Of a stretch of DNA of 64,000 bases, positions 4,288-48,444 are shown in pieces. The DNA is taken from the NCBI GenBank assembly GCA_016936815.1, contig JAFGXD010000098.1:12987-76986 (forward strand), given 5' to 3'. Under the pieces are notes generated by a model. That model was not told where the DNA came from. It did not search any database and saw only the letters and a list, made by a program, of their open reading frames with translations. This stretch comes from Bacteroidales bacterium (GTDB lineage: Bacteria > Bacteroidota > Bacteroidia > Bacteroidales > GWF2-38-335). The translations under genes and the position numbers were made by a program. The stretch's first letter is position 1; each line of letters opens with the position of its first letter.

Positions 4288-6672
4288 ATGAACCACATCG
4301 ACAATTACAATTTCCAAGACAAGAGAGTATTGATTAGAGTTGATTTTAATGTTCCCTTAAACAAAGATTTTGAAATAACCGACGATACCAGAATTGTAAC
4401 TGCAATACCAACAATCAGGAAAATTCTTGCCGATGGAGGTTCCCCAATTATTTTAACACATTTGGGTAGACCAAAAGGTCAAATTCGTCCCGAAATGTCG
4501 TTGGTTCATATTCTTCCCAGACTTGAAAAATTGCTAGACACAAAAATTATTTTTGTTGAAGATGCTGTAAGCGACAAAGCTTTTGATGTTTGCAAAAACC
4601 TTAAACCACGAGAAATTGTCTTACTTGAAAACCTTCGTTTTAATAAATCAGAACTTGAAGGCGATGAAGAATATGCCAAAAAACTTGCTCGTTTGGGAGA
4701 CGCATACGTAATGGACGCTTTTGGTACAGCTCATCGAGCGCACGCTTCAACCTATACCATTGCAAAGTATTTTCCTTACGACAAAATGCTTGGATATCTT
4801 GTAGAAAGTGAATTGAAAAACATTGACAAGGTTCTAAAAAAAGCACAACGTCCTTTTACCGCAATTATTGGTGGTTCAAAAATTTCAACAAAAATCCATA
4901 TTATTGAAGCTTTGTTACAAAAAGTTGATAATCTGGTTATTGGCGGAGGTATTGTTTACACTTTCGTAAAAGCTATGGGAGGTGAAATTGGAAATTCACT
5001 CTACGAAGAGGAGTTTTTAGATGTAGCGAAAAGAGTAATTGATAAAGCTGCAAAAAACAATGTGAAACTATATCTTCCCACAGATGTGCTTATTGCCGAT
5101 AGTTTTTCCAACGATGCTAACATTAACCATTGCGAAATAGATAAAATTCCTGAAGGTTGGATGGGACTAGATATTGGAGTAAAATCTGGCAGCAGAATTG
5201 AAGAAGTAATAGAACATTCAGCTACTATTTTATGGAATGGTCCTATGGGGGTTTTCGAAATGCCTCATTTTTCTATGGGAACTCTAAAAGTGGCTCTTTC
5301 GGTTGCCAGAGCCACCGACAAAGGAGCTTTTTCATTGGTTGGCGGGGGCGATTCAATTGCTGCTGTTAACAAATACAGTCTTGCTCATAAAATATCATAC
5401 GTTTCAACAGCAGGTGGAGCTTTGCTGGAATATATTGAAGGTAAGAAACTTCCAAGTATTAAAGCCATAAAACAATCTTACTCGGTTGACGATTACGACT
5501 TCTTTGGAAAACGTGCTTTAATTAGAGTTGATTTTAATGTTCCTCTCGATAAAGATGGCAATATTACTGACGATACAAGAATTAAGACGGCTATTCCAAC
5601 AATTAGAAAAGTTCTGGCAGATGGCGGTTCGGTAATAATAATGACACATATTGGAAGACCCAAAGGAAAACACATGCATGAATACTCTGTGAAACACATT
5701 GTATCTCATGTTTCAAAACTACTTGAAAGAGAAGTAATTTTTCTTGAAAAATGTATTGGCCCTGAAACCAAAAAATTCTGCGACACCTTAAATCCGGGAT
5801 CTGTTGTAATGCTCGAAAACCTTCGTTTTACCGAAGCTGAAACAAAAGGCGATGAAAAATTTGCATCGCAACTTGCCGAACTTGGCGATGTGTATATTAT
5901 GAATGCTTTTGGAACAGCCCACAGAGCCCATGCATCAACATATACAATAGCCAAATTCTTCCCAAATGATAAAATGCTTGGCTATTTGGTTGAGGCTGAA
6001 ATTAATAACATAGACAAAGTTCTTAAGAATCCTCAAAGGCCATTTACAGGTATTCTGGGAGGTTCAAAAGTTTCAACTAAAATTCAAATTATTGAATCTC
6101 TGTTAGATAAAGTAGATAACCTGATTATTGGTGGAGGAATTGTCTTTACAATTATTAAAGCAATGGGCGGAAAAGTTGGGGAATCTTTGGTGGAGGATGA
6201 ATACTTAGATGTTGCTAAGAGAATTATTGAAAAAGCTGCTAAGAATAATGTTAAACTCTATTTTCCGCAGGATGTGCTTATTGCAGATAAATTCGACAAT
6301 AACGCCAACATTCACCATTGCGAGATAGACAAAATTGAAGATAATTGGATGGGAATGGATATAGGAATAAAATCGGGAAACGAATTTGAAGAAGTAATAA
6401 ACCGTTCTGCCACAATACTATGGAATGGCCCAATGGGAGTTTTTGAAATGACAAACTTCTCTATGGGTACTCTAAAAGTTGCCTTGGCGGTTGCAAGAGC
6501 CACAGATAATGGAGCTTATTCCTTGGTTGGTGGAGGAGATTCGATTTCTGCCCTTAACAAATACAGTCTTGCTCACAAAATTTCTTACATTTCAACAGCC
6601 GGCGGTGCTTTGCTGGAATATATTGAAGGCAAAGAATTACCTAGTATTAAGGCTATAAGAGGAAAGTTTTAA
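4288..6672 (+). CDS. pgk: Tandem-duplicated, in-frame fused phosphoglycerate kinase (PGK-PGK, 794 aa)
   Basis: Two complete PGK units (about 4288-5475 and 5476-6672) offset by exactly 1188 nt. Each has RVDFNVP, H(L/I)GRPKG, AFGTAHRAHAS, GGSK(I/V)STKI, WNGPMGVFE and GGGDS motifs. Confidence 0.9.
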   Translation: MNHIDNYNFQDKRVLIRVDFNVPLNKDFEITDDTRIVTAIPTIRKILADGGSPIILTHLGRPKGQIRPEMSLVHILPRLEKLLDTKIIFVEDAVSDKAFDVCKNLKPREIVLLENLRFNKSELEGDEEYAKKLARLGDAYVMDAFGTAHRAHASTYTIAKYFPYDKMLGYLVESELKNIDKVLKKAQRPFTAIIGGSKISTKIHIIEALLQKVDNLVIGGGIVYTFVKAMGGEIGNSLYEEEFLDVAKRVIDKAAKNNVKLYLPTDVLIADSFSNDANINHCEIDKIPEGWMGLDIGVKSGSRIEEVIEHSATILWNGPMGVFEMPHFSMGTLKVALSVARATDKGAFSLVGGGDSIAAVNKYSLAHKISYVSTAGGALLEYIEGKKLPSIKAIKQSYSVDDYDFFGKRALIRVDFNVPLDKDGNITDDTRIKTAIPTIRKVLADGGSVIIMTHIGRPKGKHMHEYSVKHIVSHVSKLLEREVIFLEKCIGPETKKFCDTLNPGSVVMLENLRFTEAETKGDEKFASQLAELGDVYIMNAFGTAHRAHASTYTIAKFFPNDKMLGYLVEAEINNIDKVLKNPQRPFTGILGGSKVSTKIQIIESLLDKVDNLIIGGGIVFTIIKAMGGKVGESLVEDEYLDVAKRIIEKAAKNNVKLYFPQDVLIADKFDNNANIHHCEIDKIEDNWMGMDIGIKSGNEFEEVINRSATILWNGPMGVFEMTNFSMGTLKVALAVARATDNGAYSLVGGGDSISALNKYSLAHKISYISTAGGALLEYIEGKELPSIKAIRGKF

Positions 6673-32610: not shown

Positions 32611-32820
32611 CTATATTTTTGATGCTGGTTCTTTTCTTTCATCTACAATTCCATACAAACCAACTTTATATCCTTTGCTATTGTAACCTGTTTTTACAAT
32701 ATTTTTTCCTTCGCATGCCGAAATTCCTGTCCATTTGCAGTTTTCGCAATGTTTTAATCCATTAATCTGAACCCCCCAACATTCATCAGTTGAAAGCTTC
32801 GAAGTATCTATTTTTCTCAT
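32611..32820 (-). CDS. 69-aa four-cysteine miniprotein, last gene of the redox operon
   Basis: ATGA start/stop overlap with the upstream NifX-like gene (32817-32820). Cys at positions 24, 35, 38 and 46 (C..10..CxxC..7..C). No family recognised. Confidence 0.45.
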   Translation of the reverse strand: MRKIDTSKLSTDECWGVQINGLKHCENCKWTGISACEGKNIVKTGYNSKGYKVGLYGIVDERKEPASKI

Positions 32821-33152
32821 TGGTACATATTATTTTTAAAGTTTTCGTAAGCCTGTTTAGCGGATATTTCCCCAACATCCTTAATCATTTTTACATTTGT
32901 TGCCGAAAGAACGTCAAAAGCTTTTGGTCCAATATCGCCTCCTGTAATAATTACATCGGCTTTTAGTTTAGCTATTAGCTGTCCCGTTTGAATTCCGGCT
33001 CCATGTCCGGCTCCGGCATTTTCATTATTTGAATGAAAGTCTAAATTACCATTTTCTTCCGAGAAACACAAAAATCCTTGTGCTCTTCCAAAACGTGAAG
33101 AAATTAGGGAATCCCATCCCTTATCAGAATCTACTGCAAATACAATAATCAT
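32817..33152 (-). CDS. NifX/NifB-C-terminal-like (dinitrogenase FeMo-cofactor-binding fold) small protein
   Basis: 111 aa. SSRFGRAQGFLCF, then VIITGGDIGPKAFDVL, the typical pattern of this fold. Confidence 0.7.
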   Translation of the reverse strand: MIIVFAVDSDKGWDSLISSRFGRAQGFLCFSEENGNLDFHSNNENAGAGHGAGIQTGQLIAKLKADVIITGGDIGPKAFDVLSATNVKMIKDVGEISAKQAYENFKNNMYQ

Positions 33153-33154
33153 AG

Positions 33155-34033
33155 TTATTTTGTTTTTAAATTTATTTTATTCCATATTTCTTTTAAGACT
33201 TCAGAAATTTCTTTGCCTTCTTTTATTTCTCCTACAGTTAATTTTTTATTTAATGCTAAATTAAATGCTTTGTGATATGGAAGTTTTCCCAATAATGAAA
33301 TTTCTTTTTCTTTCAGAAATTTTTCTATTTCATTTGTCTTTTCCACATTTAAATCCCATTTATTAATAATACAAGAGGTATTAATTCCCATACTACTTGC
33401 CAGTTGAATTACTCTTTCCAAATCGTGTAATCCTGAAACGGTAGGTTCGGTAACCACAACTACTAAATCGGCTCCTGTAATAGAAGCAATAACCGGACAG
33501 CCAATTCCGGGAGAACCATCTACCAAAATGTTGTTAATTTGAGACTTTTCTGCAACTGCTTTTGCTTTTTGTCTAACTCTGCTTACAAGCTTACCCGAAT
33601 TTTCCGCTCCAATTGTAAGTTCAGCATGCACCAAAATATTGTCCAATCGTGTATTAGAGCAAAATAACAATCCTGTATGGTTTGGAATCATTTCAATTGC
33701 ATTTTCGGGACAAACTCTGGAGCAGTAACCACAGCCTTCGCAATCAATTTTTCTAACCATGTATTCCCCATTAACAATATTAATGGCATTAAATCGACAA
33801 ACTTGTGCGCAAAGGTTACATGCAATGCATTTTCCACTATCTATACTGGCAAAGCTTCCGCTGAAAAAATCTTCCTGCGATAAAAAGTCAGGATGTAAAA
33901 GAATGTGCATATCGGCAGCATCTACATCGCAATCGGCTACTACAAGAGGTTTTTCCGACAGAAATGCAAGGGCGGCTGTTACAGAAGTTTTTCCTGTACC
34001 ACCCTTGCCTGATATTATCACAATTTCTGTCAT
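33155..34033 (-). CDS. MinD/ParA-superfamily P-loop ATPase with inserted 2x[4Fe-4S] ferredoxin domain (COG1149-type)
   Basis: Deviant Walker A SGKGGTGKTS. CIACNLCAQVCRFNAI and CEGCGYCSRVCPENAI (two CxxCxxCxxxC motifs), then DGSPGIGCPVIAS. Confidence 0.8.
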   Translation of the reverse strand: MTEIVIISGKGGTGKTSVTAALAFLSEKPLVVADCDVDAADMHILLHPDFLSQEDFFSGSFASIDSGKCIACNLCAQVCRFNAINIVNGEYMVRKIDCEGCGYCSRVCPENAIEMIPNHTGLLFCSNTRLDNILVHAELTIGAENSGKLVSRVRQKAKAVAEKSQINNILVDGSPGIGCPVIASITGADLVVVVTEPTVSGLHDLERVIQLASSMGINTSCIINKWDLNVEKTNEIEKFLKEKEISLLGKLPYHKAFNLALNKKLTVGEIKEGKEISEVLKEIWNKINLKTK

Positions 34034-34900
34034 TTAATATATATTGAGGTTAGTATAAATTTGTTTTGCTATTTTTTCAAGTTCTTTTTGAACTTCCAAA
34101 CAGCTTTCTAATAAAAGACCTTTGGAATAGAGCTCAGCAACCTTTCTTGAATATGGAATTTTTCCTGCAATTTCTATGTTTTGTTTTTTGCAGTATTTTT
34201 CAATATCCTTATTTCCAATGCCATATCTATTTATTACAACAAGAATTTTTTTATCTAATTCCCTCATAGTTTTAACAGCAAGCCTCAAGTCGTGAAATCC
34301 AAAAGGTGTTGGTTCTGTAATAAGAATAACTAAATCAGCATCTTTTGTAGCTTCAATAACAGGACAAGAGGTGCCGGGGGGTGAATCAAACAGCAGCAAT
34401 GAATCTTTATTTATTTTGTTTTCAGCTAATTCCTTAATCTTTTTAATTAGAGGAACGGCAGATTCCTGACCGATATCCAAAACACCCTCTAAAAAAGTAA
34501 AGTTTTGGTTAATAGAAAAAACTCTGCTTATTCCCATTTTTAAGTTTTCCATTGGCAAAGCATCTTCGGGACAAAGTTCCGAGCAGGCATAGCAGGAATG
34601 ACAAAGTTCTTTAAAAACCAAAATAGTTTTTGGCAAACTTGCAATAGCATTAAAATTGCATAAAGAATTGCATTTTCCGCAGAAAGTACATTTATCGGGT
34701 TGCCATACAGGAACCGGCCGGTATTCAGGTTGTTCTTTAAGAAGCTTTCCTTTAAGAAACAAACCCGAATTCGGTTCTTCAACGTCTAAATCGGCTAAAA
34801 CCACTTTTTTACCAAGTTTCCCACTTAAATAATAAGCAAGATTAACCGACAGTGTTGTTTTGCCTGTACCGCCTTTTCCGCTGGCAATTGCAATTTTCAT
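34034..34900 (-). CDS. MinD/ParA-superfamily P-loop ATPase with inserted 2x[4Fe-4S] ferredoxin domain (paralog)
   Basis: SGKGGTGKTT. CTFCGKCNSLCNFNAI and CHSCYACSELCPEDAL, then DSPPGTSCPVIEA. Zero-nt gap to the downstream paralog. Confidence 0.8.
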   Translation of the reverse strand: MKIAIASGKGGTGKTTLSVNLAYYLSGKLGKKVVLADLDVEEPNSGLFLKGKLLKEQPEYRPVPVWQPDKCTFCGKCNSLCNFNAIASLPKTILVFKELCHSCYACSELCPEDALPMENLKMGISRVFSINQNFTFLEGVLDIGQESAVPLIKKIKELAENKINKDSLLLFDSPPGTSCPVIEATKDADLVILITEPTPFGFHDLRLAVKTMRELDKKILVVINRYGIGNKDIEKYCKKQNIEIAGKIPYSRKVAELYSKGLLLESCLEVQKELEKIAKQIYTNLNIY

Positions 34901-36249
34901 TAGCCCATTTTAATTTGCTTCCAAGCCATTTCTGCCGCTTTTATTAAAGGATAAGCTGCCGGGGAAGCTGTTAACAAAGGATGTGTACCAATTTGAGAAG
35001 TAATTAAGGAAGCCAGACTCATTTTGCTCTGAATCATAATTCCTACTACATTAATTAATTCCCCTGAGCTAATTCCTCCAATTATTTCTGCACCTAAAAT
35101 AGTTCCACATTCTTTGGAGACAATTAGTTTAACTTTTTGTTTATGTGATCCGGGTAAAGCTCCGGGGTGACGGTCGACTCCTTCAAAAACTCCTGTAATT
35201 ATATTATATCCCTCATCAATTGCCATTTTTTCAGTTAGACCTGCTGTGCTAAATGAGGTATTACCAACGGCAGTTGAATAAATTGCAATAGTTCCTCCAA
35301 AAGTTTTTAGAACCGACAGTTGAAAAATATTCATTGCAGCAATTCTTGCCTCGGCACAAGCTGTTGAAGCTAGCATGGTACTGCTTATTTTTCTGGTGAA
35401 GAAATCTCTCTTTTCAGCACAATCTCCTGCTGCAAAAATTCCATGAACAGAAGTTCGCATATATTCATCTACCTGAATAAATCCTTTTTCATTAAGCGTT
35501 AACCCACATTTTTTTGCAAGTTCGTTATTGGGAGCATATCCCATTGACAATACAACTGCATCTGCCTGTATTTCTCTTCCATCCTCTAAAATTATTCCTT
35601 GAACCTTCTCATTTCCAATAATTTCTTTTATTCCCGAACCTGTAATTACCTTAACTCCTCTTTCTGAGATAATAGCATTAGCTTCCGCTGCAATTTCTTC
35701 ATCGAAAGCTGCAGGCAAAATCTGGTTTTGTTTTTCAATAATGGTAACATTTTTACCAATTTTTTTTAACTCATCGGCAACCTCAACACCAATAAAGCCG
35801 GCTCCTATTATTGCTATGTCCTTTATATTTTCAAGTTCAGTCTGAAAGCTGTCAAGGTACTTTTTATTTTTAGGTATTACATAAACATTTTGAAGGTGGG
35901 ATCCTTTTAGCCATTGTGGTTTTATTGGAGTAGAACCTGTTGCAATAATTAGTTTCTCGAAATTAATTTGTTCTCCTGAACTGCTCTTACAGAATTTCTC
36001 TGAACAATTAATATCTGTTATTTCCCCAATATTAATTTCAACCCCGGCATTTTTTAAGCCCATATCGGGTAAAACGTTCTTTTCGGAACTGCCTGTTGTT
36101 CCATAAATGTAAGGAATTCCACAAGGAATCATAACAACTTCCTCGTTTCTAAAAAGAACTACCTTTTTGTTGGGATAGTTGAGTTTTGCGGTTGAAGCTG
36201 CAACAAATCCTGCTGCACTTCCGCCAATAATTAAGATGTCTGTTTGCAT
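34900..36249 (-). CDS. FAD-dependent pyridine nucleotide-disulfide oxidoreductase (CoA-disulfide reductase / NADH oxidase family)
   Basis: ILIIGGSAAGFVAA FAD site, redox-Cys context VVMIPCGIPYIYG, a second dinucleotide site IAIIGAGFIGVEVADEL, and GIFAAGDCA. Confidence 0.8.
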   Translation of the reverse strand: MQTDILIIGGSAAGFVAASTAKLNYPNKKVVLFRNEEVVMIPCGIPYIYGTTGSSEKNVLPDMGLKNAGVEINIGEITDINCSEKFCKSSSGEQINFEKLIIATGSTPIKPQWLKGSHLQNVYVIPKNKKYLDSFQTELENIKDIAIIGAGFIGVEVADELKKIGKNVTIIEKQNQILPAAFDEEIAAEANAIISERGVKVITGSGIKEIIGNEKVQGIILEDGREIQADAVVLSMGYAPNNELAKKCGLTLNEKGFIQVDEYMRTSVHGIFAAGDCAEKRDFFTRKISSTMLASTACAEARIAAMNIFQLSVLKTFGGTIAIYSTAVGNTSFSTAGLTEKMAIDEGYNIITGVFEGVDRHPGALPGSHKQKVKLIVSKECGTILGAEIIGGISSGELINVVGIMIQSKMSLASLITSQIGTHPLLTASPAAYPLIKAAEMAWKQIKMG

Positions 36250-36287
36250 TACTATTAGTATTAATTTGTGATTGTTAGCAAGAATTA

Positions 36288-37199
36288 TTAGTTTCTTGCA
36301 GATTTGTGATTGTTTGTTTTTTGTGTGATTGAATTCATTACAATAAAGCTTTTTACAGGTACATTAATGGATTCTGCAATTACAGGGCATTTAACCATTA
36401 GAAGAAAAAACAAGCGCGAGTCTTCTTCGTTAAATAACCCTTCAAGATTTCCCTGTCCTTTTGAAATAATAACATCAGCTTTGCGATAAATTTCTATAAA
36501 TTCATCCGAGCATTTATTAAGAATTGTTGAGGGAGCATCGTAACCATTTGAAATAATTGTACAATACCTGTCAAGACCAACTGCATAAGCATCTTCCTTT
36601 GTAGCATCATTCATAACGGGTTTGTCTTTTACTGCATAATAAACTTTTGGTTTATTTATTGTTTCCAATAATAACCGGTCGAAAACAATTTCCCCACAAT
36701 TATCGCCTAATACCAAAATTGTTTTGGCTTTCTTAATTGCTTTTTGAAGTTGAACAACATCATTTATTGCAAAATCCGCTTCCAAAACCGATTTTAAAAC
36801 TTCATTCATTTTTTCCGATGATTTATCCATAAAATCTGGTACAGCAGCCATATCCATTATATTACCTGCAATTGAAATTCTAACAGCAGTTTCAAAAATG
36901 TTTTCACCTGTTTCTGTAAGAATTTGTAATTTCTGATAATAGTTCTCAGCCAGTCTGTTACACATATCTTTTTCTTCAAAACAAGGATCCTCAACGCCCG
37001 AAAAATCTTTAATTATTCTATGTAACGAAGCGGCAACTTCAGGTATTAAAAAATCAGTTTTATCTTCCGCAAGTTCACAAAAAAGTCTGTTAATTAACAA
37101 GTCTTTCTTGCTATTATCCAAATCAAGCCTTGCTACTACTTTTTCGGTTGACCTTATTAAGCAGTATTTACAGCGGTAGTCCATTAATGATCGCAACAA
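36288..37199 (-). CDS. DUF89 / ARMT1-like (damage-control phosphatase family) protein with N-terminal CxxC
   Basis: CKYCLIRS near the N-terminus, VLGDNCGEIVFDRLLLE (DN.GE motif) and ISKGQGNLEGL (KG..N.E motif). Confidence 0.65.
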   Translation of the reverse strand: MLRSLMDYRCKYCLIRSTEKVVARLDLDNSKKDLLINRLFCELAEDKTDFLIPEVAASLHRIIKDFSGVEDPCFEEKDMCNRLAENYYQKLQILTETGENIFETAVRISIAGNIMDMAAVPDFMDKSSEKMNEVLKSVLEADFAINDVVQLQKAIKKAKTILVLGDNCGEIVFDRLLLETINKPKVYYAVKDKPVMNDATKEDAYAVGLDRYCTIISNGYDAPSTILNKCSDEFIEIYRKADVIISKGQGNLEGLFNEEDSRLFFLLMVKCPVIAESINVPVKSFIVMNSITQKTNNHKSARN

Positions 37200-37519
37200 T
37201 TATCCGAGGTTTCAAGACTTCCTTCCAAAAAGTCAAGAACTAATTCTTTTGGAGATTTTGCCGGTACACCAATAAATACGTTTATTTTATTCTGATTAAA
37301 AAGTTCAATTGCTCTCTGTCCCATACCTCCGGCAATAACATCGGTAACTCCCATATCGGCAAGCCACTTTGGATAAACACCCGGCTCGTGAGGAGGAGGA
37401 GTTAATTGCTCTTCCTTAACTATTTGATTATTACTCGTTTCATATACATGAAAACTGTTTGTATGCCCAAAATGCATATTTAACTGCCCGTTTACAACCG
37501 GAATTGCAATTTTTCCCAT
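37184..37519 (-). CDS. NifX/NifB-C-terminal-like small protein, CCDH C-terminus
   Basis: HFGHTNSFHVYE, VIAGGMGQRAIELF. Ends SDNCCDH. 16-nt overlap with the downstream DUF89 gene. Confidence 0.7.
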   Translation of the reverse strand: MGKIAIPVVNGQLNMHFGHTNSFHVYETSNNQIVKEEQLTPPPHEPGVYPKWLADMGVTDVIAGGMGQRAIELFNQNKINVFIGVPAKSPKELVLDFLEGSLETSDNCCDH

Positions 37520-37530
37520 AAATTTTTTTT

Positions 37531-37600
37531 AGCTGTTAGCTTTTAGCTGTTGGCTGTTGGCTATGTTTTATAGCTTTAGACTGTTGACTATTAGCTTATT
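37531..37600. repeat. Degenerate short tandem repeats (AGCTGTTRGCT on plus; AGCYAACAGC on the mRNA strand) in the intercistronic spacer
   Basis: agctgttagct / tagctgttggct / gttggct / agctttagactgttgactattagct. On the transcript, CAACAG/AACAG occurs 4 times and AGCUA 5 times within about 70 nt, just before the ATG at 37519. Confidence 0.5.
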
Positions 37601-37623
37601 AATAAATTTCTTAATACCATTAA

Positions 37624-37809
37624 TTATCTACCACCCCTATGCTGGTTACCTCTTCCTTTTCCTGCGCCATTTCCGGCACCACGTCCTCTGCCACCACCAT
37701 TTCCGCGTGTGTTGTTTTCATCATTTTGTGTTGCAGGTTTGCAATTTCCCAAACCTCTTCCTGTTCTTGAACCTTTTCCTTGTGGTCCTGTTCCATCTTG
37801 ATTAGGCAT
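37624..37809 (-). CDS. DUF5320-like G/R-rich miniprotein, first gene of the redox operon
   Basis: MPNQDGTGPQGKGSRTGRGLGNC matches the MP..DGTGP.G.G..TGRG.G.C family signature, followed by a GRG/GNG low-complexity tail. Preferred over the antisense 82-aa ORF at 37557-37805. Confidence 0.65.
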   Translation of the reverse strand: MPNQDGTGPQGKGSRTGRGLGNCKPATQNDENNTRGNGGGRGRGAGNGAGKGRGNQHRGGR

Positions 37810-37901
37810 AATTCCTCCTTTTTAAATTGTTAATATTAACCATTACAGAAATAAAAATAAATCCAAATTTGCAGGATTTTTATTATTTAAGTCTGGCCTT
37901 A

Positions 37902-37909
37902 CAAAGGTA
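37902..37909 (-). promoter_or_regulatory. Candidate -7 promoter box for the redox operon
   Basis: Plus-strand CAAAGGTA is TACCTTTG on the minus strand, 93 nt upstream of the ATG at 37809. Confidence 0.3.
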
Positions 37910-38032
37910 AGACAACAAATTATCTATAGTAAGAAAATACCTTACGAACATATTTAGGGATAAGCTAAGATATCTCAACTTTTTTGTTGAGGTAGATTAA
38001 TATAATTTATTAAGGTATTAGAATTTTATGAC

Positions 38033-38040
38033 TATTTTTG
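38033..38040 (+). promoter_or_regulatory. Bacteroidota-type -7 promoter box for the Crp/Fnr gene
   Basis: TATTTTTG, 56 nt upstream of the ATG at 38096. Confidence 0.45.
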
Positions 38041-38049
38041 CATAAAATG

Positions 38050-38079
38050 TTTGTTTCAACAATAATTCTATGAAACAAA
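38050..38079. promoter_or_regulatory. Perfect 9-bp inverted repeat TTTGTTTCA-N12-TGAAACAAA between promoter box and Crp/Fnr start codon
   Basis: Arms at 38050-38058 and 38071-38079 are exact reverse complements. The position is operator-like or a 5'-UTR hairpin. Confidence 0.35.
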
Positions 38080-38095
38080 TGTAATTTTACAGAAA

Positions 38096-38782
38096 ATGCC
38101 GGTTGAAAAAAGTTGTCTGTTATGCGAGAAAGGATCGAATTGTTTCAGGAAATTAATCCCTGAAGAATTAGAATTTATTAACCGAAAAAAAACTCAAATA
38201 ACTTACTTAAAAGGTGAAAACATGTGTAAACAGGGAGCTTTTGCTTCTTATGTTTTATATATTTCAGAAGGACTTGTGAAACTTTATTTGGAAAATAATA
38301 ATCAAAAAATTACTAATGTTCAATTATTGCAATCGGGCAGTTTTATTGGTCTTTCATCAGTGTTTGGAAAAAATATTTACAATTATTCTGTTGTGGCTCT
38401 TAAAAATTCTGAGGTTTGTCTTATTGAAAAAGAAGGTTTACGAAATTTACTGGAAAAAAATGGTCTTTTTGCTTCCTCGGTAATAAAAAACTATAGCAAT
38501 ACCGAAGCATATTTATTCGAAAAGCTTAAGAGTCTTAGCTACAAACAAATGAATGGCAGAATAGCTGATGCTTTATTATATTTGTCCGATAACAGCATTT
38601 TTGATGAGAATATTTTTCCATATTTAAGCAGAAAAGATCTTGCTGACTTTGCCTGTGTTTCTACAGAATCTACAGTCAAAATTCTTGGTGAGTTGAAAAC
38701 TGAGGGAATAATAGATATGAAAGGAAAAACTATTGATATTCTTGAACCAGAACGACTTAAACAAATTTCGAGATTGGGATAA
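38096..38782 (+). CDS. Crp/Fnr-family transcriptional regulator with FNR-like Fe-S cysteine motif
   Basis: 228 aa. Cys7-x2-Cys10-x5-Cys16 plus Cys108, a cNMP-binding-like beta-roll, and a C-terminal HTH (SRKDLADFACVSTESTVKILGELKTEG). Confidence 0.85.
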   Translation: MPVEKSCLLCEKGSNCFRKLIPEELEFINRKKTQITYLKGENMCKQGAFASYVLYISEGLVKLYLENNNQKITNVQLLQSGSFIGLSSVFGKNIYNYSVVALKNSEVCLIEKEGLRNLLEKNGLFASSVIKNYSNTEAYLFEKLKSLSYKQMNGRIADALLYLSDNSIFDENIFPYLSRKDLADFACVSTESTVKILGELKTEGIIDMKGKTIDILEPERLKQISRLG

Positions 38783-46176: not shown

Positions 46177-48444
46177 TTAAAAAGTACTTAGCTCCTTATA
46201 TAATCTTTCAGGCTCCCTTAACAATCCCGGATTTTTGTCTAAATGAATAAGTCCCGGAATTGATAGCTGCATTACTTTTACAGATGGTTTTTCTTTGGGA
46301 TTATCGCTGCATTTGCACTTTGCAATCATTAACTTCCCTATAACTATTGCAAAAGAATCTATGTTTTTAGCTGATGAAAATAGGTTTGATACCGCCTGAT
46401 TAATTTCATCTTCTTTTGCATTTTTTCCAATTAAGGAAGTTTCCAACAAATCAATTTTTTCATAAACATCTCTTAGAGATAAAGATTCTCTGGAAATCCC
46501 CATTCTTTCATTAAAAGGTTCGGCTTTTTTGTCGGGGTTGTAAAAGTCGAACCCAAGCTCTTCAATAAGTTTCTTTAAACTCTCGAAAGCCTGATTTAAA
46601 ACTTTTTCACCTGTAGCTTCAAAAAATGAATATACAGGCATGTGTCGTTTTAACTTTCTGGTTTTGTAGGATGTATTTATTGAGTTAAATGAAATATACT
46701 CTCCAAAAGCATTTTGCAAAATGTAGATCTGACCTTTTAATCTGGCAACTTCATCTTTGTGTTCTCGTTCAAGATTTTTAATTTTGCTCTCGTAGTATGA
46801 GTAATATTGTTTCATATACTCATTCTTTGGACCGGCTGCAACTAAACGTTTTCCTTCATCGGTGTCGGTAAAATTCTCGAAATTTTCAATAAATTTTTCT
46901 GCAAGCATCTGAGCTTGCTTTACGTAAGAAGACTCATATTTCCATGTGTTTCTTGGATTTAGAATTGCCGAATTTACTCCGTTAACCTCCTTCGGAATAT
47001 TTAAACCAAATGTTGGTAATTCTATATATTCCGCATCGTCAAGGCTTCCATCCAAAATTGCTTTAATTATATTACGTGTAGATTCTAAATCTATTCTTTT
47101 TCCTACACCGTATGCTCCGCCAATCCAACCTGTATTAACCAAATATGCTGTTGCATTGTGTTCTTCCATTTTTGTAGCAAGTTCTTTAGCGTAAACAGTT
47201 GGATGAAGTAATAAAAAAGCAGCTCCAAATGCAGAAGAGAACGTTGGCATTGGTTCTTTTACTCCACGTTCTGTACCGGCCAACTTTGCTGTGTAACCAC
47301 TTAAAAAATAGTACATTGCCTGATCTCTTGAAAGCTTAGAAACGGGTGGAAAAACTCCAAAAGCATCTGCTGTTAAGAATATTATTTTCTTTGGATGTCC
47401 GCCTTTAGAAATAGGACGAACTATGTTGTTTATATGATCTATAGGATAACTTACTCTGGTATTTTCAGTTTTTGAAATGTCGGCAAAATTTATTTCTCCT
47501 GTTTTCTCATTAAAAACAACATTTTCCAAAAGTGCATTTTTTCTAATTGCTGCAAAAATGTCCGGTTCATTTTCTTTGCTAAGATTAATACATTTGGCAT
47601 AGCAACCACCTTCAAAATTAAAAATTCCATCTTCGTCCCAACCGTGCTCATCGTCGCCAATTAAGAATCTTTCGGGGTCGGCAGAAAGTGTAGTCTTTCC
47701 TGTTCCTGAAAGTCCGAAGAAAATAGCAGTATCACCATTTTTTCCCATATTTGCCGAACAATGCATTGCAGCAATACCTTTTAATGGAAGAAAATAATTC
47801 ATTATTGAAAAGAAACCTTTCTTTATTTCACCACCATACCATGTTCCACCAACAACCGACATTTTTTCTTTAAGGTTGAAGGCTACGTAAACATCTGAAT
47901 TTAAGCCATGTCGCTCCCAATCCTCGTTAACAGTCTTACAGGCATTTAGCATTACAAAATCGGGCTGAAAGTTCTTTAATTCTTCCTGACTTGGTCTAAT
48001 AAACATATTTTTTACAAAGTGCGATTGCCAGGCAACTTCCGAAATAACTCTTATTTTTAATCTTGTATCTTCATTAGCACCACAAAAAGCGTCTGTAACA
48101 TATAGTTTTTTGCCCGAAAGCTGTTTACACGAATTATCAACTAAATCGTTCCATACCTCTGTACTTATTGGCTTATTATCGGAATCCTTTCTTTTGGGAT
48201 CTGCCCACCAGATATTATTTTTCGACTCTTCTTCGTAAACTATATATTTATCTTTTGGCGAACGACCTGTAAAAATGCCCGTATCAACAGCTACAGCTCC
48301 CAGGTTTGTTACAAAACCTTTTTCAAAACCCTGTACTTTGCCACTGGTCTCATGTTCAAATAATTCATCGAAAGATAAGTTTCTATATACCTCAGTACAG
48401 TCGCTTATGCCATACTTTTCAAGGTCCTTAATGATTTTTTTCAT
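46177..48444 (-). CDS. pckA: ATP-dependent phosphoenolpyruvate carboxykinase fused to a 215-aa C-terminal domain of unknown function
   Basis: aa 1-540 (46825-48444) form a complete PckA ([19 protein letters not shown], ending LVAAGPK). aa 541-755 (46180-46824) continue in frame with an unrelated sequence. Confidence 0.9.

Follow-up and report, generated by a model that had tools for sequence, protein, structure and literature searches.

A gene cluster of probable Orange Protein type in a Bacteroidales genome and its FNR-like regulator

The Orange Protein (ORP) system has, to our knowledge, been worked on since 2004 without a function having been assigned to it, and almost all of the experiments come from one Desulfovibrio species. 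Here we describe a compact group of eight minus-strand genes and a divergently transcribed Crp/Fnr-type regulator gene in the genome of a Bacteroidales bacterium (assembly GCA_016936815.1, contig JAFGXD010000098.1, positions 12,987 to 76,986; the whole stretch of 64,000 nucleotides is called the window below). It is very probable that this locus is an ORP-type cluster, the Bacteroidota (Marinilabiliales-like) variant of the anaerobe-specific ORP system. An initial annotation of the genes had presented them as the operon of a candidate uncharacterised redox or metallocluster system. The operon is real, yet the system has already been studied in Desulfovibrio, and it is the physiological role of ORP that is still unsolved. 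New here are the predicted FNR-type regulator, which stands in the place of sigma54 and OrpR, and its candidate operator, and related loci contribute instructive gene fusions.

In Desulfovibrio, the ORP complex contains the paralogous ATPases Orp3 and Orp4, each with two [4Fe-4S] ferredoxin motifs, as well as Orp5, Orp8 (the Orange Protein, a one-domain 'Di-Nase' protein) and Orp9 (PMC6345978). Orp8 binds a [S2MoS2CuS2MoS2]3- cluster non-covalently (PMC6345978, citing earlier literature). Orp3, Orp4 and Orp8 co-purify and carry Fe-S clusters, and MrpORP loads Fe-S clusters on ORP proteins in vitro (PMC6345978). The orp operons are activated by sigma54 and OrpR, the PAS domain of which holds a redox-sensitive [4Fe-4S] cluster; expression takes place only at low redox potential and is switched off by a rising potential, and OrpR is restricted to Deltaproteobacteria (PMC8359166). 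A role in cell division has been proposed, and the role is called 'still unclear' by the authors (PMC6345978, PMC8359166). The earlier statement that neighbourhoods of this kind have no experimentally assigned function therefore holds for the physiological function but not for the complex, its loading with Fe-S clusters and its expression at low redox potential, all of which have been shown in Desulfovibrio (PMC6345978, PMC8359166).

The ATPases of the window cluster are a MinD/ParA-type pair in which each protein has two CX2CX2CX3C [4Fe-4S] motifs, and this architecture agrees with the published description of Orp3 and Orp4 (PMC6345978). In six loci the ATPase pair adjoins a two-domain protein that scores above the cutoff of the NCBI MrpORP equivalog model (510-557 bits vs. 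450), and the ATPases encoded in these loci with a bona fide MrpORP share 42-61% identity with those of the window. They can therefore be regarded as Orp3/Orp4-type proteins, and the locus as ORP-type. A homolog of the Orange Protein (Orp8), of the Nitro_FeMo-Co family, is also encoded in the cluster. A two-domain MrpORP (Orp9) is missing, there being no Mrp-type ATPase in the cluster, and OrpR and a sigma54 promoter are missing as well; the regulator is a Crp/Fnr protein, and no -24/-12-like element was found in the divergent promoters.

The distribution of the arrangement was surveyed by means of an ATPase alignment of family representatives, with which 80 loci were collected from GTDB species genomes; 82 loci were scored in the census. 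The ATPase pair, or a fusion of the two, was found in 80 of the 82 loci and an adjacent NifX-like gene in approximately 77, DUF5320 in at least 46 (again an approximate count), DUF89 in 20, a CoADR-type flavoprotein in eight, a Crp/Fnr regulator in two and the 69-aa protein in one, the window. Bacteroidota, Spirochaetota, Campylobacterota, Planctomycetota, Desulfobacterota, Chloroflexota, Cloacimonadota and several archaeal lineages are among the taxa covered. The arrangement is far beyond chance, because the ATPase pair and the adjacent NifX-like gene recur in 77-80 of the 82 loci and in many phyla. The recurrence of ATPases, NifX-like proteins and DUF5320 in anaerobes, as put forward initially, agrees with the census, the key cases of which were confirmed with curated Pfam and NCBIfam models. 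Owing to natural fusions in the seeded profiles, the NifX, DUF5320 and Mrp signals of the census were mixed; for the same reason de novo single-linkage clustering merged the ATPases with the NifX proteins.

The view of all eight genes as one set did not survive the census. The core consists of DUF5320, the Di-Nase-type NifX protein (NifX1), ATPase A, ATPase B and the Orange Protein; DUF89 and especially the flavoprotein are two optional accessories, and the 69-aa protein is one co-located orphan. ORP-type clusters of other phyla are recurrently accompanied by DUF134 (sigma70-region-4-like), a Zn-ribbon protein, a radical SAM (S-adenosylmethionine) protein and a SAM methyltransferase, and further by an MBL-fold (metallo-beta-lactamase) protein, a thioesterase and a CGGC-domain protein. 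These were found by de novo clustering of same-strand gene runs followed by Pfam searches (loci L011-L090 in our numbering; examples are at L017 6552-6986, L087 4222-5172 and L018 4995-5438). None of them is present in the window. Hints of what the system carries may lie in these families.

Like the ORP system of Desulfovibrio vulgaris Hildenborough, the window cluster has paired MinD-type ATPases with two [4Fe-4S] motifs per subunit, an adjacent Orange Protein ortholog, an MrpORP-type Di-Nase domain, a restriction to anaerobes and a dedicated, divergently transcribed neighbouring regulator of the Fe-S redox type. There is one operon in the window, however, whereas Desulfovibrio has two divergent ones, and the Di-Nase domain stands alone, the cluster having no Mrp/NBP35 ATPase half. 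In place of a sigma54 enhancer-binding protein with an Fe-S PAS domain there is a Crp/Fnr regulator with FNR-type Cys residues, no sigma54-type promoter is present, and genes for DUF89 and a CoADR-type flavoprotein are added. The small Fe-S protein Orp5 and Orp7 may have their counterparts in DUF5320 or DUF134. The ORP system is found in strict anaerobes of many bacterial and archaeal phyla. The independent recruitment of Fe-S-type redox regulators, FNR-type here and OrpR there, argues that a tight coupling to anoxia is intrinsic to the system.

Each ATPase carries a Walker A motif GKGGTGKT in addition to its two CxxCxxCxxxC motifs. All 55 adjacent pairs are ordered A-type then B-type, and tandem fusions of ~600 aa are common among the family representatives (595 aa in a Lentimicrobiaceae locus, L021). 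An A/B heterodimer is very likely because of this invariable order, the tandem fusions and the published co-purification of Orp3, Orp4 and Orp8. Judging from the gene order alone, A would be Orp4 and B would be Orp3. The eight ferredoxin Cys residues and C179 are 100% conserved in 56 A-type sequences and likewise in the B-type ones, and C35 of the B-type is conserved at 77%. C179 sits directly after switch II (D.PPGT.CP or DG.PG.GCPV) in both subfamilies. The cluster ligand Cys132 of NifH, which lies in the switch-II region, may be the counterpart of C179 according to the position in the motif.

No solved structure of the ferredoxin-insert ATPase family was found in a PDB search. The AlphaFold2 (AF2) model of ATPase A (pLDDT 96.8) ends in a long helix, residues 268-284, and its nearest folds are MinD, FlhG/FleN, ATPase-type HypB, BchL, NifH and ApbC, none of which has the insert. 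As in other SIMIBI ATPases (NifH/BchL, Mrp/NBP35/ApbC, CooC, ATPase-type HypB), there is a deviant Walker A motif GKGGxGKT, a conserved Cys in the switch-II region and a partnership with NifX-like carriers, and a dimer-dependent nucleotide cycle is to be expected. Unlike any of these, each A/B subunit has an inserted two-cluster ferredoxin domain, and the A/B paralogs form an obligate pair. Each subunit has one conserved switch-II Cys, compared with two ligands in NifH and a CxxC in Mrp.

Both NifX-like proteins of the window can be placed in the ORP system. NifX1 matches the NCBIfam MrpORP model with 119.7 bits (cutoff 450) over profile positions 266-365 of 365, which are its C-terminal 100 residues. 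It carries TPPPHEPG (published as TPPPHxPG) and a C-terminal CCDH (published as CDH), the motifs of the MrpORP Di-Nase domain (PMC6345978). The best PDB match of the second protein (32817-33152) is 2WFB, the ORP of D. gigas, with an E value of 2.3e-15 over residues 10-107. It resembles ORP in its near lack of Cys, having a single one (C29), and a gene for a protein of 111-116 aa directly follows ATPase B in many of the 82 loci. A role in nitrogenase maturation, as known for the NifX/NafY/NifB association, finds no counterpart in the gene content of the window, and the earlier remark that such genes are lacking holds: no nifHDK, nifEN or radical-SAM, NifB-type gene was detected among the 30 other large open reading frames (ORFs) of the window.

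The regulator had been credited with FNR-type Cys ligands, and these are indeed present as C7-x2-C10-x5-C16 and C108; the corresponding spacing in Escherichia coli FNR is C20-x2-C23-x5-C29...C122. C108 aligns with C122 of E. coli FNR (BLASTP; the FNR sequence was entered by hand). A metagenome scan with the regulator gave only two distant loci (44% identity), and the orthologs were obtained from a protein search and contig look-ups. In 20 orthologs with 49-79% identity C108 is invariant and C7, C10 and C16 are at least 90% conserved. The protein shares with FNR the Crp/Fnr fold, that is a cNMP-binding-like sensor domain and a C-terminal Crp-type helix-turn-helix, and the conserved Glu of the recognition helix. 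The helix itself, unlike the ETISR (E--SR) of FNR, reads ESTVK, and the NCBIfam Fnr model gives a score of 38.5 vs. a cutoff of 228. The canonical FNR box is TTGAT-N4-ATCAA; this box and a sigma54 promoter were both sought in the divergent region and neither was found. The candidate operator is of a different pattern, TAnCTyA-N10-TrAGnTA, and in contrast to the global E. coli FNR the window regulator appears to be local, serving one gene pair or operon. The regulator is accordingly described as FNR-like in its predicted sensor and apparently not of the FNR-box regulon type. The public gene call (P0391, 186 aa) starts at an internal ATG, dropping the Cx2Cx5C segment (window 38096-38221, plus strand). 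The likely result is a systematic annotation error by which the family's FNR-type character is concealed, and the 228-aa long form is favoured because the full-length orthologs all support it.

Divergent pairing of the regulator was seen in six distinct loci (seven fetched), namely the window, L010, L028, L093, L094/L095 and L096. In L010 (a JGI contig), with a full cluster, and in the closest relative, L096, it is divergent from DUF5320 and the Di-Nase-type NifX gene. In Labilibaculum antarcticum (L093) and Saccharicrinis (L094/L095) the regulator is found with the same two genes and no ATPases follow, and in L028 it is divergent from a NifX1-type gene that is followed by a flavoprotein gene. 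The conserved partner of the regulator is the pair of DUF5320 and the Di-Nase-type NifX protein.

An imperfect palindrome of ~30 bp is common to five of the six distinct divergent promoters (the alignable ones, all but that of L028). Its pattern has a single match in the window (0.06 expected). Among 96 loci (~1.4 Mb) it matches only in regulator-bearing ones, once each at the promoters of L010, L093 and L096, and at the promoter and two further sites in L094/L095. The consensus of the Bacteroidota -7 promoter element is TAnnTTTG. Candidate boxes of this type facing the operon end 81, 81, 80 and 81 bp from the centre of the palindrome in the window, L010, L094 and L096 (four of the five promoters), and those facing the regulator gene are 57, 58 and 57 bp from it in the window, L010 and L096 (three of the five). 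The palindrome would thus be an activator site and not a repressor site, because the candidate operator is upstream of both core promoters at fixed distances. Of the extra Saccharicrinis sites (L094/L095 4428-4451 and 9698-9721), one precedes a 152-aa helical ORF without a Pfam match and the other directly follows the regulator gene and precedes a 58-aa membrane-like ORF; the genes at these sites are possible additional members of the regulon.

The DUF5320 protein of the window has a pI of 11.8, with 20 Gly (33%) and 11 Arg/Lys among its 61 residues and one conserved Cys (C23) in the N-terminal motif MPNxDGTGPxGKGxRTGRGLGNC. Our literature search found no paper discussing the function of DUF5320 and none relevant for COG1149/COG1433. 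In several loci one protein consists of an Orange-Protein-type NifX domain, a Gly/Arg/Met-rich region and then the DUF5320 coiled coil. The fusion in L078 (185 aa) has Nitro_FeMo-Co at residues 13-102 and DUF5320 at 103-181, both above the Pfam thresholds, and further NifX-DUF5320 fusions are encoded in L080, L062, L033 and L090. Such fusions connect ORP to the thioferrate paradigm of IssA. IssA (SipA, PF2025) of Pyrococcus furiosus has an IPR003731 domain followed by a cationic Gly/Arg-rich tail with a single Cys, which has been proposed to wrap anionic thioferrate electrostatically, and there is an uncharacterised 'IssX' clade with Gly-rich tails (PMC5524996).

By analogy, we infer that DUF5320 may be the same kind of cationic partner as the IssA tail, encoded in trans. 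In both cases an IPR003731/NifX-like domain is combined with a cationic, Gly/Arg-rich and largely unstructured segment with a single Cys, and in Thermococcales a CoADR-type flavoprotein (NSR) and P-loop ATPases are induced together with IssA. Unlike in IssA, where the domain and the tail are in one polypeptide, the cationic segment of the window is the product of a separate gene and no C-terminal tail is present, both NifX-like proteins being tailless with 111 aa; the fused forms occur in other loci. Thioferrate and nanoparticles are known for IssA, whereas the window system is known from its genes alone. Unlike the latter, IssA has not been reported to need paired ferredoxin-insert ATPases. 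SipB (PF2026) might connect IssA directly with the ferredoxin-insert ATPases, but the sources say only 'ATPase C-terminus' and no conclusion was drawn (PMC6981617, PMC4463584).

The flavoprotein has FAD/NAD(P)H domains, a dimerisation domain and a single N-terminal redox Cys, as is characteristic of group-3 pyridine nucleotide-disulfide oxidoreductases such as CoADR, NSR and Npsr, the shared motif being xPCGxPY. Its Cys43, in MIPCGIPY, aligns with the redox Cys of CoADR (PCGIPY). The best PDB matches are NoxA-3 of Archaeoglobus fulgidus (6PFZ), Pyrococcus CoADR (5L1N/4FX9) and a CoA-persulfide reductase (8A56), other solved relatives being Npsr and NADH peroxidase; identity with Pyrococcus CoADR and A. 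fulgidus NoxA-3 is ~30-35%. The substrate cannot be named, because the protein is below every NCBIfam equivalog cutoff (231.9 vs. 458 for CoADR, and 220.3 vs. 578.8 bits). Homologs of ~60% identity stand alone in Clostridia, Thermotogota and an Asgard archaeon, and CoADR-type flavoproteins adjoin ORP clusters in four phyla. Four of these cluster-linked flavoproteins, from three phyla (L086, L027, L087, L076), differ from the window protein in having a C-terminal rhodanese domain. CoADR with a C-terminal rhodanese is a persulfide/polysulfide-reductase architecture. In one Bacteroidetes metagenome-assembled genome (L018, 10917-12286) the cluster-linked flavoprotein is split over three consecutive ORFs of 72, 99 and 315 aa, which suggests frameshifts, a pseudogene or assembly errors. 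Elemental sulfur co-induces NSR (CoADR-type), IssA/SipA, the SipB ATPase and Mrp/Nbp35 in Thermococcales (PMC6981617, PMC4463584), which we consider a possible parallel, not a proof.

DUF89 proteins are metal-dependent (damage-control) phosphatases, and the window protein has the ARMT1-like domain with the conserved metal-site motifs. Its best PDB match is PH1575 (2G8L, E value 3e-40), with which it shares GDNxGE, NDAT, KGQGN and an N-terminal CxxC (C10/C13 in the window). The CxxC is therefore a trait of the subfamily and not special to the locus. The score is below the NCBIfam equivalog cutoff (183.6 vs. 440). DUF89 genes are often located between the NifX1-type gene and ATPase A in both bacteria and archaea (L039, L044), and DUF89 is missing in the closest relative, L096. 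The recurrence of persulfide-reductase-type flavoproteins and DUF89 as accessories hints at the sulfur source.

The cluster as a whole would be best explained as a machine, induced by anoxia and driven by ATP, in which anionic metal-sulfide clusters are assembled, held and passed on. The regulator would hold an O2- or redox-labile [4Fe-4S] cluster and under anoxia would activate the operon and itself from an upstream class-I-like site, as a functional analog of OrpR that was recruited independently. The nucleotide cycle of the A/B heterodimer, coupled through the switch-II Cys, would load or unload a cluster on the NifX-like carriers, with the ferredoxin inserts feeding electrons to the heterodimer. 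DUF5320, in trans and similarly to the cationic tail of IssA, may stabilise the anionic metal-sulfide species electrostatically. With NAD(P)H as the electron donor, the CoADR/NSR-type flavoprotein would reduce CoA persulfide/disulfide or sulfane sulfur and thereby supply sulfide or keep thiols reduced, and DUF89 may be an optional phosphatase accessory. An ATP-driven Fe-S or metallocluster module tied to anoxia had been suggested for the genes from the start and is supported as a general idea. For the mechanism as a whole our confidence is tentative, and we would put its chances a little below even.

A further-reaching reading, which we regard as rather unlikely, is that DUF5320, the NifX-like carriers and the A/B pair belong to one widespread system that uses ATP and electrons to store and mobilise inorganic metal-sulfide polymers or clusters resembling thioferrate or thiometallates. 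It would amount to an 'IssA in trans' equipped with a motor; in Bacteroidota a persulfide-reductase-type flavoprotein would feed it and an FNR-type switch would control it. If this were true, it would provide a biochemical function for the ORP complex and for DUF5320 across anaerobic bacteria and archaea. If the locus is only a lineage-specific variant of an unexplained complex, its value lies mainly in annotation, and such genes should be named ORP-type instead of NifX, MinD or 'hypothetical'. Cultured relatives suitable for testing are Mangrovibacterium marinum DSM 28823, Labilibaculum antarcticum, Saccharicrinis and Geofilum; the first of these has a full cluster that includes DUF89 and a flavoprotein with rhodanese.

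Several points weigh against the assembly of metal-sulfide clusters by the ORP machine as outlined above. Co-transcription, the sign of the regulation and all of the substrates are what we infer, and the equivalence of the switch-II Cys to Cys132 of NifH goes by motif position, not by a dimer structure. NifX1 is without both Cys of the CxHFGHCE motif, which is thought to bind the cluster in MrpORP, and the Mrp ATPase half of MrpORP is absent from the window. The DUF5320 protein of the window is short, as it does not have the C-terminal coiled coil that is usual in the family. The flavoprotein has no rhodanese domain and may be a loosely coupled passenger, given its presence in eight of the 82 loci and its occurrence alone in many other genomes. 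Even in Desulfovibrio the physiological cluster of the Orange Protein is disputed, and its Mo-Cu cluster could be adventitious. The census is not an unbiased sample, its loci being those that match ATPase A best, and the census profiles were seeded from the window proteins and cross-contaminated by the natural fusion proteins, so that the NifX and DUF5320 counts are approximate. Finally, the promoters in which the operator pattern is counted are those that it was built from, and only its absence elsewhere is independent.

The alternative closest to this proposal, from which it differs only in the metal, is the handling of Mo/W/Cu thiometallates. According to it, tetrathiomolybdate-copper species, which arise spontaneously in sulfidic habitats, are sequestered by the Orange Protein and the ATPases assemble or dismantle the cluster, either to detoxify these species or to keep Mo/W in store for molybdo-enzymes. 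The cluster [S2MoS2CuS2MoS2]3-, bound non-covalently, is the one cargo of an Orange Protein that has been defined chemically (PMC6345978); the single Cys of the window ortholog is consistent with such binding of an anionic cluster, and the cationic DUF5320 would suit the anion. However, no molybdate or tungstate transporter, molybdopterin or copper gene was found in or near the window cluster or among the recurrent accessories, and the physiological relevance of the Mo-Cu cluster is unproven. We consider this alternative quite unlikely as it stands.

Similarly improbable is a function in oxidative stress and Fe-S repair, in which the flavoprotein would remove O2/H2O2, the ATPases and carriers would repair or re-load clusters and O2 damage to the FNR-type protein would de-repress the operon. 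The flavoprotein family does include H2O-forming NADH oxidases and NADH peroxidase, the best PDB match being the NADH oxidase NoxA-3, and DUF89 proteins have been described as damage-control phosphatases. MrpORP also transfers Fe-S clusters to apo-proteins in vitro (PMC6345978). Expression of orp in Desulfovibrio nevertheless falls, and does not rise, with increasing redox potential (PMC8359166). Moreover, the operator is 80-81 bp and 57-58 bp upstream of the promoter boxes without overlapping them, an arrangement typical of activators, 74 of the 82 clusters have no flavoprotein, and the cluster proteins are themselves rich in O2-labile Fe-S.

In Desulfovibrio the ORP proteins have been discussed in connection with cell division, and the MinD-like ATPases could place the septum under anaerobic conditions with the metalloproteins as redox inputs. 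MinD and FlhG/FleN are the nearest structural neighbours of the ATPase body. Loss of orp expression causes morphological defects and MrpORP is localised at the poles (PMC6345978, PMC8359166). A C-terminal amphipathic helix has been reported in Orp3 and Orp4 (PMC6345978, PMC8359166), and the AF2 model ends in a helix, as noted above. On the other hand, no minC, minE or ftsZ was found in or beside any surveyed cluster; the partners that accompany the ATPases constantly are metallocluster carriers, and among the recurrent accessories are an Mrp Fe-S carrier, radical SAM and CGGC proteins and a persulfide-reductase-type flavoprotein. The invariant switch-II Cys and the eight ferredoxin Cys are without counterpart in MinD, and the Desulfovibrio authors leave the role open in the words quoted above. 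A positioning function therefore has a small chance of being correct.

That the cluster is not one unit, with the ORP core as one module and DUF89, the flavoprotein and the 69-aa gene as lineage-specific passengers, would fit L096 (DUF5320-NifX-A-B-ORP and the 69-aa gene, without DUF89 or the flavoprotein), L010 (flavoprotein but no DUF89) and the occurrence of the flavoprotein and the 69-aa protein alone in other genomes, but it is very improbable for the cluster as a whole in view of DUF89 in 20 of the 82 loci of bacteria and archaea, often in the same slot before ATPase A, of CoADR-type flavoproteins beside the cluster in four phyla, of the regulator-NifX1-flavoprotein order in L028 and of window junctions that are translationally coupled or very short. 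For the 69-aa protein it is probably right.

The features of the locus are collected in Table 1. The eight minus-strand ORFs and the divergent plus-strand one (38096-38782) were recovered at exactly the coordinates of the initial annotation. Recomputation reproduced the operon-like packing and all of the junction lengths, which along the operon are a 104-nt spacer, -16, 38, -1 (TAATG), 0, 2 and -4 (ATGA). The 16-nt overlap between DUF89 and NifX1, though reproduced in length, is probably one of 1 nt: the start of the DUF89 gene is more likely ATG 37184 (TAATG stop/start overlap) than TTG 37199, because the alignments with PH1575 and Pfam begin at residues 6-7. Every family proposed for the genes was recovered by curated Pfam models above the gathering thresholds, and the Cys and Walker A motifs were all found in their places.

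Table 1. Genes and putative control elements of the ORP-type locus (window positions)
Feature	Position	Strand	Remarks
FNR-type Crp/Fnr regulator (predicted), 228 aa	38096..38782	+	Divergent from operon; Pfam cNMP_binding and HTH_Crp_2
Candidate -7 box TATTTTTG	38033..38040	+	Faces regulator gene; 57 bp from operator centre
Candidate operator, core TAnCTyA-N10-TrAGnTA	37971..37994	.	~30-bp imperfect palindrome (37968-37997), 6-nt A/T-rich centre
Candidate Bacteroidota-type -7 box TACCTTTG	37902..37909	-	Faces operon; ends 81 bp from operator centre
DUF5320 protein, 61 aa	37624..37809	-	Pfam DUF5320 42.8 bits, profile positions 1-54 of 99
NifX-like protein #1 (NifX1), 111 aa, stand-alone MrpORP 'Di-Nase' homolog	37184..37519	-	NCBIfam MrpORP; Pfam Nitro_FeMo-Co
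DUF89/ARMT1-like metal-dependent phosphatase, subfamily-I type	36288..37184 (TTG 37199 possible)	-	Pfam 194 bits
Single-Cys group-3 flavoprotein (CoADR/NSR/Nox/Npx type), 449 aa	34900..36249	-	Pfam Pyr_redox_2 and Pyr_redox_dim
ATPase A, MinD/SIMIBI with inserted 2x[4Fe-4S] ferredoxin domain (Orp4/Orp3 type)	34034..34900	-	Pfam CbiA/ParA and Fer4
ATPase B, paralog of A (30% identity), same architecture	33155..34033	-	Pfam CbiA/ParA and Fer4
Orange Protein (Orp8) ortholog, NifX-like protein #2, 111 aa	32817..33152	-	PDB 2WFB; Pfam Nitro_FeMo-Co
69-aa 4-Cys orphan protein	32611..32820	-	ATGA overlap with Orange Protein gene; no Pfam/NCBIfam match

The 69-aa protein has its four Cys at positions 14, 25, 28 and 36. 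Its family comprises 133 clusters with 64-100% identity, in which C14, C28 and C36 are invariant and C25 is ~90% conserved. The signature ECWGVQINGLxHCxNCKWTGISACEGKNIVKTG is very strongly conserved in Bacteroidota. Searches of Pfam and NCBIfam gave no match, and no PDB fold resembled the AF2 model (pLDDT 74). The gene is at the end of the operon only in the window and the closest relative, L096, and in unrelated contexts in all three of the more distant genomes (L001, L002, L004). Its inclusion as a member of the system could not be upheld, and on the same grounds it was rejected as a conserved, Orp5-like small Fe-S component. The protein is best treated as a neighbour and not as a part of the system, and it may be co-transcribed here. 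In two genomes the 69-aa gene adjoins a dihydroorotate dehydrogenase-like gene and an NAD-linked [NiFe] hydrogenase operon.

A generic scan of the cluster for sigma70 promoters and terminators yielded nothing above chance (24 vs. 26.8 expected and 5 vs. 4.1), and no terminator was predicted in it after the 69-aa gene. The 104-nt spacer between DUF5320 and NifX1 (37520-37623, minus strand) contains short direct repeats, CAACAGC three times and AGCTAA several times, and an A-run before the ATG. The spacer is not conserved, as its counterparts in L096 and L010 have far fewer nucleotides (25 and 70 nt). The DUF5320 gene is preceded by a strong AGGAGG Shine-Dalgarno-like sequence, as is the one in L094; such sequences are uncommon in Bacteroidota.

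The cluster is surrounded by housekeeping and envelope genes. By its best hits the contig belongs to Bacteroidota, close to metagenome-assembled genomes of Marinilabiliales. GC content is uniform along the window (~0.30-0.36), and there is therefore no sign of a foreign island. At 46177-48444 (minus strand) an ATP-dependent phosphoenolpyruvate carboxykinase (Pfam residues 18-492) has a C-terminal extension of ~260 aa without a Pfam match, which could be genuine or could have arisen by read-through from one gene into another. One ORF of 794 aa at 4288-6672 (plus strand) consists of two complete copies of phosphoglycerate kinase in tandem, in frame and with no stop between them. A fusion of this kind is unusual; its halves share 70.9% of their amino acids and 72.6% of their nucleotides.

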